Below are positions 3,161 to 3,301 of a DNA stretch of 31,449 nt, in pieces; positions within the stretch are counted from its first letter, which is position 1; each line of letters begins with the position of its first letter. The DNA is from a virus (Duplodnaviria > Heunggongvirae > Uroviricota > Caudoviricetes), in IMG/VR virus record IMGVR_UViG_2541047798_000008. The stretch is one strand, 5' to 3'. The position numbers and the translations under genes were made by a program. The notes beneath the pieces are model-generated. The model worked only from the letters and a program-made list of their open reading frames with translations, had not been told where the DNA came from and made no database searches.

Positions 3161-3301
3161 TTACTCAAAAAAAAGCGACGAGAAAATCAGCATCAACGAA
3201 CAATAAGCGCCAATACGTGATAACAAATGGCAGCCATATTTATCTGCAGTATAAGCAATGGACAGGATAACCACACCAGAAACCGTCAGCATAAAATCCA
3301 T
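3161..3301 (-). CDS. Candidate 46-aa hydrophobic peptide (MDFMLTVSGVVILSIAYTADKYGCHLLSRIGAYCSLMLIFSSLFFE)
   Basis: ATG 3299-3301 with GGGGAAG about 7 nt upstream; stop TAA at 3161-3163. Below the ORF-track size cut-off; coding status uncertain. Confidence 0.25.
   Translation of the reverse strand: MDFMLTVSGVVILSIAYTADKYGCHLLSRIGAYCSLMLIFSSLFFE

Follow-up and report, generated by a model that had tools for sequence, protein, structure and literature searches.

ECs1538, a probable lysogen-expressed orphan microprotein gene on a small moron-like segment of Escherichia coli lambdoid prophages

Morons of lambdoid phages, such as lambda bor and lom and HK97 gp15, are recognised by three properties: extra DNA between blocks that are adjacent in a related phage, a base composition unlike that of the neighbouring phage genes, and an own promoter and terminator together with expression in the lysogen. 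Small phage-encoded membrane proteins are also known among superinfection-exclusion proteins (T4 Imm, P22 SieA and SieB, HK97 gp15) and among class II holins and pinholins; the latter have two transmembrane domains, about 65-95 aa and a charged C-terminal tail, and are encoded beside the endolysin gene. Type I toxins (Hok/Gef, Ldr, TisB, ZorO) are hydrophobic peptides of less than 60 aa, recognised by a profile match, a single transmembrane helix and a cognate antisense RNA. The Storz-type microproteins are small E. coli membrane proteins of at most 50 aa, detected by ribosome profiling.

The DNA analysed here, referred to as the window, is the whole stretch of 31,449 nucleotides of the IMG/VR record IMGVR_UViG_2541047798_000008 (Caudoviricetes); all positions refer to it. 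A preliminary description had placed a possible 46-codon ORF preceded by GGGGAAG at 3161-3301, in a region devoid of annotated genes between an Rz fragment and a ribbon-helix-helix gene. Coordinates, codon number and GGGGAAG were confirmed, and the strand, which had been left unstated, is the minus strand. The placement also held: the ORF is flanked by an Rz 3' fragment and a convergent DUF3950 ylcI/ynfO gene. The absence of annotation did not hold, since the ORF is publicly annotated (ECs_1538, WP_000347013.1). The ORF and its surroundings consist of the following features.

3161-3301, minus strand: ORF of 46 codons plus TAA stop (ATG 3301-3299, TAA 3163-3161)
3307-3313, minus strand: Shine-Dalgarno-like GGGGAAG, 5 nt (TTCAA) from the ATG of the ORF
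3167-3174, minus strand: homopolymer of eight T (T8) within the final ORF codons, varying in length between copies
2998-3455, minus strand: AT-rich segment of 458 bp, made up of the ORF with its 5' and 3' flanks plus the final ~10 codons of ylcI
3456-3642, minus strand: conserved block rich in GC (57%), bordering the cargo segment on the left
2843-3028, plus strand: ylcI/ynfO gene, ribbon-helix-helix-like, convergent to the ORF (DUF3950, Pfam E 9e-19; NCBIfam YlcI_YnfO_N)
3652-5193, minus strand: terminase large-subunit gene fused to the Rz end (junction at ~3692/3693)

The 46-aa product (MDFMLTVSGVVILSIAYTADKYGCHLLSRIGAYCSLMLIFSSLFFE) is the same protein as WP_000347013.1, which is ECs_1538 (NP_309565.1) of prophage Sp6 of E. 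coli O157:H7 Sakai (1561112-1561252). The ORF is an already annotated, uncharacterised gene, ECs1538, of E. coli lambda-like prophages. An in-frame TTG at 3319, 5' of the ATG, would give an alternative product of 52 aa. The C-terminus depends on the T-run: copies with T7 end in ...SLFLSKLY (49 aa), those with T8 in ...SLFFE (46 aa) and those with T9 in ...SLFF (45 aa). A +1 slip on the T8 run leads straight onto a TGA.

A 301-nt region containing the ORF was found in 734 of 5,426 complete E. coli genomes (~13%; 788 copies in all), and a PGAP 'hypothetical protein' overlies it in every genome among the matches listed. WP_000347013.1 (141 nt) is annotated, for example, in FORC_069 and O157:H7 SS17, and the UniRef entry of the product is an uncharacterised protein present on at least 1000 contigs. 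In the phage record LC567835 the DNA of the ORF is present and unannotated. Carriers include prophages of major pathogens (O157:H7 Sp6, O104:H4).

Relatives were searched for at several levels. The peptide matched nothing in Pfam, PHROGs, NCBIfam and PADLOC (Pfam, NCBIfam and PADLOC at E <= 1), and no defence-system model matched it. A word-indexed search with two alleles against 5.8 billion clustered proteins and an exhaustive HMMER profile search of 1.84 billion representatives returned only the E. coli copies; three additional protein matches were discarded as repeat-derived artefacts. Two scans of the GTDB species representatives (185,579 genomes, the E. coli representative included) did not find the ORF, a profile search of the PDB gave no relative, and literature searches with its accession, locus tag or peptide sequence were without result. 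The product is an orphan for which no homologue outside E. coli prophages was found.

ECs1538 is carried by a small moron-like insert. In the prophage of strain E2348/69, 42 bp stand in place of window 3455-2998 (458 bp) with homologous flanks on both sides, and the GC-rich block directly adjoins ylcI; the segment is extra DNA between blocks that are adjacent in a related prophage. Its base composition is unlike that of its phage neighbours, with a GC content of 36% (30% in the 5' flank of the ORF) versus 57% in the adjacent block and about 50% in the terminase gene. On the minus strand the order is cos, nu1, a cut-short terminase gene, the Rz end (last ~40 nt), the block, the AT-rich stretch with the ORF, and ylcI. 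Beyond ylcI follow a lambda-type cos (~2625-2640) and a second pair of nu1 (2512-1901) and terminase genes.

The position of the ORF is always between the post-Rz block and the convergent ylcI/ynfO gene, just before cos. The order was constant in 142 viral, metagenomic and genomic loci (block at -340, ORF, ylcI at +270), ylcI/ynfO adjoined the ORF in nearly all loci that extended far enough, and the same context was seen with two packaging modules, either the lambda-type cos/Nu1/A or HNH/TerS/TerL. In many lambdoid prophages the GC-rich block comes after Rz or after a small ORF downstream of Rz. A second copy of the Rz end plus block is present in the window itself (7040-7254, 86% identical) and is followed by a different cargo of 1.2 kb. 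Because this second copy precedes different cargo and the segment is replaced in E2348/69, the interval between block and cos is regarded as a cargo slot.

Several further observations were made on the surroundings. Sequences related to the ~187-nt GC-rich block were present in 4,145 of the 5,426 E. coli genomes and, at ~79% identity, on plasmids. The block marks a border at which different cargo segments start and may be a recombination linker of lambdoid mosaics; it had no Rfam match and its fold was unremarkable (z -0.7). At the other end, the mosaic junction of the cargo segment falls inside the 3' end of ylcI (2990-3028, plus strand), and for this reason the last ~10 YlcI residues vary between alleles (...STESSGMNYIIK in the window, ...ATDATHLRPASMTNNEK in E2348/69 and ...AAETSDANNKQS in SHP24). 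In the current Sakai RefSeq record ylcI is unannotated and a 90-nt plus-strand ORF, ECs_1539, is given at its place.

The terminase gene upstream of the block breaks off after ...YQRSKKH and continues in frame into the final 13 codons of Rz, resulting in the tandem cos-nu1-terA', Rz', block, ORF, ylcI, cos, nu1, terA; window 486-2205 and 3693-5412 are 93.5% identical. The terminase/Rz junction was found in none of the 5,426 complete E. coli genomes, and stems either from an assembly chimera or from a rare event of illegitimate recombination that joined two prophages. In the other Rz-to-cos interval (5862-7040), the 1.2-kb cargo contains a plus-strand ORF at 5892-6212, antisense to the late genes. 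From an internal Met it reads MKIRNILAISLATSSFSCLAFK..., which is signal-peptide-like, and it has a cysteine-rich tail (...GTCDASPVPGCTCPFCT...); judged by these features, its product may be a secreted moron product.

The reading preferred here is that ECs1538 is a genuine orphan microprotein gene, expressed in the lysogen and located on a small AT-rich moron-like segment; on balance this is probably correct. It has to be weighed above all against a chance origin, in which the ORF arose in a recent T-rich and AT-rich transcribed spacer, the ribosome footprints come from background or from pervasive translation along a short moron transcript, and any real role is exerted at the RNA level, for example by convergent antisense transcription into ylcI. 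Such an origin is unlikely, at a level that still calls for serious weighing. The composition of the segment is in its favour. An ATG-initiated ORF of at least 46 codons was present in 907 of 2000 dinucleotide-preserving shuffles of the 458-bp segment (45%), and the length of the ORF alone is within chance expectation. Nor is hydrophobicity specific to the frame: the mean Kyte-Doolittle value is 1.21 for the ORF frame and 1.45 and 0.97 for the other two frames of the same strand, all three being hydrophobic because the strand is T-rich. The hydrophobic character of the product is partly a by-product of this strand composition. The lack of homologues fits a chance origin as well. What sets the ORF above chance is comparative evidence and published ribosome profiling.

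For the comparison, copies of the main lineage are too similar to inform on constraint: identity over 201 nt is 99% or higher in 731 of the 734 genomes, which leaves almost no evolutionary time between them. Diverged copies are allele B (locus L090; ~90% nucleotide identity) and alleles C and D (L003, from strain SHP24, WP_000523825.1, and L137), the latter two with ~76-79% identity to allele A over a 441-nt segment and 82% inside the ORF. The preliminary description had stated that loss of the frame in relatives would speak against a gene. The frame survived: the four lineages keep 45-46 codons open without internal indel while the 3' flank has acquired several indels, and the ORF frame is the only one of six that is open in both A and C. 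The ATG-to-GTG variant retains a start codon, and GGGGAA is retained in three of the four lineages. These features argue against a chance ORF.

The substitutions point in the same direction. Comparison of A with C gave an NG86 dN/dS of 0.31 (Fisher p 0.016), that of B with C one of 0.25 (p 0.0025), and independent branches pooled with polymorphisms gave 20 synonymous versus 19 non-synonymous changes (binomial p 0.0003-0.004), an excess of synonymous changes. Replacements within the ORF are conservative (V/I, S/A, M/I). Residues 26-45, in the region of the predicted second helix, are near-invariant in the protein, and four of the six nucleotide differences there are synonymous. A composition-aware randomisation, in which the observed number of substitutions with the observed share of transitions was placed at random in allele A, gave for A versus C a probability of 0.68 for no stop and of 0.10 for a BLOSUM score at least as high as observed (p by this randomisation only ~0.07-0.1). 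By these values, which count in favour of a chance ORF, purifying selection on the ORF is only suggested by the sequences.

Loci were also picked by the upstream block, independently of the ORF. An intact frame of 45/46 aa was present in 90 of these 94 loci; the remaining four comprise two T7 tail variants, one mid-ORF frameshift and one copy that has lost its stop. Frameshifted copies of the ORF (P0010 from O55:H7 DEC5B, P0004, P0008) are compatible with a chance origin.

Ribosome profiling, which the preliminary description had proposed as a check, is available from published Sakai data, and these mostly favour coding. ECs1538 is among the 250 shortest annotated Sakai genes with a ribosome coverage value (RCV) of at least 0.25 (Huecker et al. 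2017, PMC5597208), and translation was called in that study at RPKM >= 1, coverage >= 0.5 and RCV >= 0.25. In LB at 37°C, ECs1538 had an RNA RPKM of 57.6, a Ribo-seq RPKM of 26.1, an RCV of 0.46 and a coverage of 0.98, values that pass all thresholds and speak against chance; in BHI the corresponding values were 32.7, 7.3, 0.23 and 0.81, and in BHI at 14°C with 4% NaCl 2.1, 0.6, 0.29 and 0.13 (PMC5597208, S2 Table). For ECs1538 the same study lists a Shine-Dalgarno sequence 4 nt upstream (deltaG -3.6; S4 Table), a BPROM promoter (LDF 8.00), no terminator, a machine-learning call of 'real' and the localisation 'inner membrane, 2 TM'. The specificity of the footprints for the frame is put in question by the two overlapping 'novel genes' of the 3' flank, XECs147 and XECs148; the position of XECs148 is given below, and XECs147 corresponds to a frame overlapping it.

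3021-3131, minus strand: 36-codon ORF in the 3' flank (XECs148), on the same transcript as ECs1538 and not conserved in alleles B and C

Both pass the thresholds with RNA levels similar to that of ECs1538 (PMC5597208). Because these non-conserved ORFs show signals of like size, the footprints on ECs1538 may not be frame-specific, as a chance origin would have it. XECs147 and XECs148 look less credible than ECs1538, judged by the flank indels and substitutions in alleles B and C. Their signal indicates that the ECs1538 transcript reads on towards ylcI. XECs148 was also considered as an in-frame part of ECs1538 and rejected, since its printed sequence is the ORF of the downstream flank.

RNA levels of the neighbouring genes were taken from the same data (LB, RNA/Ribo-seq RPKM; PMC5597208): 8.4/8.4 for the holin gene ECs1530, 10.1/6.7 for ECs1536, 3.0/2.1 for ECs1537 and 45.6/11.1 for ylcI (old ECs1539). 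In uninduced Sakai cells the ECs1538 RNA is 6-19x that of the same-strand upstream late genes, and this difference argues for an own promoter. A consensus scan found no promoter or terminator on the ORF strand beside the ORF. The following candidate lies upstream of it.

3347-3381, minus strand: AT-rich stretch of 35 nt, identical in A and C, with surroundings that are ~22% diverged
3353-3380, minus strand: candidate sigma-70 promoter inside this stretch (-35 TTTATT 3380-3375, 16-nt spacer, -10 GATAAT 3358-3353)

The candidate matches the consensus at 8/12 positions, which is under the threshold of the scan. The BPROM site (LDF 8) given for XECs147/148 computes to ~61 nt upstream of the ECs1538 ATG, within 3381-3347. 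From its sequence, the 35-nt stretch is the probable location of the ECs1538 promoter. With respect to the third moron property, the segment has this 8/12 candidate, no terminator, and an RNA RPKM of 57.6 versus 3-10 upstream. The missing terminator and the overlap of the transcript with the 3' end of ylcI agree with a chance ORF on a spacer transcript. A role of the RNA itself is disfavoured by the lack of an Rfam match and of significant folds in the flanks, except for the 3' flank (z -2.4); a permissive Rfam run over 2500-3800 gave matches at chance level only.

Two terminator candidates were rejected. The T8 run is not preceded by a GC-rich hairpin in allele A or C, and the hairpin at 3094-3121 lacks conservation in allele C, its T-run and A-run being misplaced for a terminator on either strand. 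The only promoter-like site in the insert that passed the scan is on the plus strand (3338-3366, TTTACA-17-TATGTT, 9/12). It stands back to back with the candidate promoter of the ORF and faces the conserved block and the Rz end; judged by sequence and orientation, it could give a transcript antisense to the late operon.

The structure of the product was predicted with AlphaFold2 from a four-sequence alignment. Two helices (residues 2-21 and 25-44) joined at K21-Y22-G23 were obtained with a mean pLDDT of 91.5. Confident AlphaFold helices are common for any hydrophobic peptide. With K21 and R29 on either side of the turn and D2 and E46 at the termini, the positive-inside rule predicts a cytoplasmic loop. 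The second helix reads LLSRIGAYC..L.LIFSSLFF and contains a G31xxxS/A35 motif. A Foldseek search against viral structures was uninformative, the helical hairpin matching hundreds of unrelated proteins at E > 0.6. According to the model, the product is probably a tiny two-helix membrane protein in lysogens. The preliminary description had left the choice between a small membrane toxin or exclusion peptide and non-coding DNA. Its coding and membrane part is supported by the conserved frame, the PGAP and Sakai annotation, the Ribo-seq data and the AlphaFold hairpin, with a selection signal that is statistically weak.

For ECs1538 as a genuine lysogen-expressed gene, the following mechanism is proposed. 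The gene stands last in the late region of E. coli lambdoid prophages, and would be transcribed from a sigma-70 promoter of its own, located in the conserved AT-rich stretch at ~50-60 nt ahead of the ATG, with a transcript that, lacking a terminator, would run into the 3' end of the convergent ylcI. The 46-aa product would be inserted in the inner membrane as a helical hairpin, with the K21/R29 loop in the cytoplasm and the acidic termini in the periplasm. Through its highly conserved second helix (G31xxxS/A35) it would bind to itself or to a different membrane protein. Judged solely by analogy with other membrane proteins that prophages express in lysogens, the best guess at its role is lysogenic conversion at the inner membrane, for example by blocking DNA entry of superinfecting phages or by modulating a host membrane protein.

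A more far-reaching version is that ECs1538 founds a family of 46-aa two-helix inner-membrane lysogen microproteins restricted to E. coli prophages, which would cause a host phenotype by binding of the invariant second helix to a host membrane protein. This version is speculative and rather doubtful; candidate phenotypes would be exclusion of superinfecting lambdoid phages and altered envelope physiology. ECs1538 is already present in databases and in a published Ribo-seq table as a hypothetical protein without phenotype. Should the peptide prove real and active, the lambdoid-prophage cargo of pathogenic E. coli (O157:H7, O104:H4, ExPEC) would gain a further membrane microprotein made in lysogens, and ECs1538 would be a compact test case for the origin of orphan microproteins in AT-rich moron DNA.

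A function in lysis is improbable. In this case the Q-antiterminated late transcript would be the source of the product, which would adjust the time of lysis as an antiholin or as a modulator of holin or spanin. The ORF does share the strand of the lysis cassette and late operon, a few hundred bases after them, and a small two-helix membrane protein is in the size class of holin-interacting factors. The excess of its RNA over that of the holin and post-Rz genes in uninduced cells, however, indicates that its expression is uncoupled from theirs. Moreover, identical lysis cassettes occur without the ORF in E2348/69, the ORF of the window follows a truncated terminase gene and not a lysis cassette, and the product lacks the charged C-terminal tail typical of holins.

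Least probable of all is a toxin of the type I or kil kind, whose overproduced peptide would depolarise the inner membrane and be restrained by antisense transcription coming from ylcI, which is convergent to the ORF. In its favour are the small size and hydrophobicity of the peptide, the missing terminator between the ORF and ylcI, and a weak similarity of YlcI to HicB antitoxins (phrog_497, E 0.012). Against it, no Hok/Gef or other toxin model matched, two helices are predicted instead of the one of known type I toxins, the gene is transcribed and ribosome-covered in healthy growing lysogens, no Rfam antisense RNA was found, and ylcI is widespread without the ORF.

In comparison with the systems described above, the ECs1538 product is set apart from class II holins and pinholins by its length of 46 aa and by its end, ...SLFFE, without a basic tail; in every context a class II holin is annotated as a gene of its own upstream of the ORF. 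With the type I toxins Hok/Gef, Ldr, TisB and ZorO it has in common a hydrophobic product of less than 60 aa and a location on a prophage or mobile element. Unlike these, it has no Pfam match, two predicted helices instead of a single transmembrane helix, expression in growing cells and no cognate antisense RNA that could be found. Like T4 Imm, P22 SieA and SieB and HK97 gp15, the product is phage-encoded, expressed from the prophage and predicted to reside in the inner membrane; it is much shorter than these exclusion proteins and has no sequence or family match to them. It shares with the Storz-type microproteins the size class, a predicted insertion in the membrane and evidence that is mainly Ribo-seq; it differs in being prophage-borne, in not being found in the E. 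coli species-representative genome of GTDB, and in being known from Ribo-seq and not as a tagged protein.

In contrast to lambdoid morons, no consensus promoter or terminator that could be recognised was found beside ECs1538, and moron products share no sequence similarity with its product of only 46 aa. Lambda bor, in addition, is on the opposite strand, whereas the ORF is on the strand of the late operon. Like bor, the ORF lies within the Rz-to-cos interval. With bor, lom and HK97 gp15 it has in common a location in additional AT-rich DNA that separates genes lying side by side in a related prophage, a level of expression in the lysogen that exceeds that of the surrounding late genes, and a product that is predicted to be a membrane or envelope protein.
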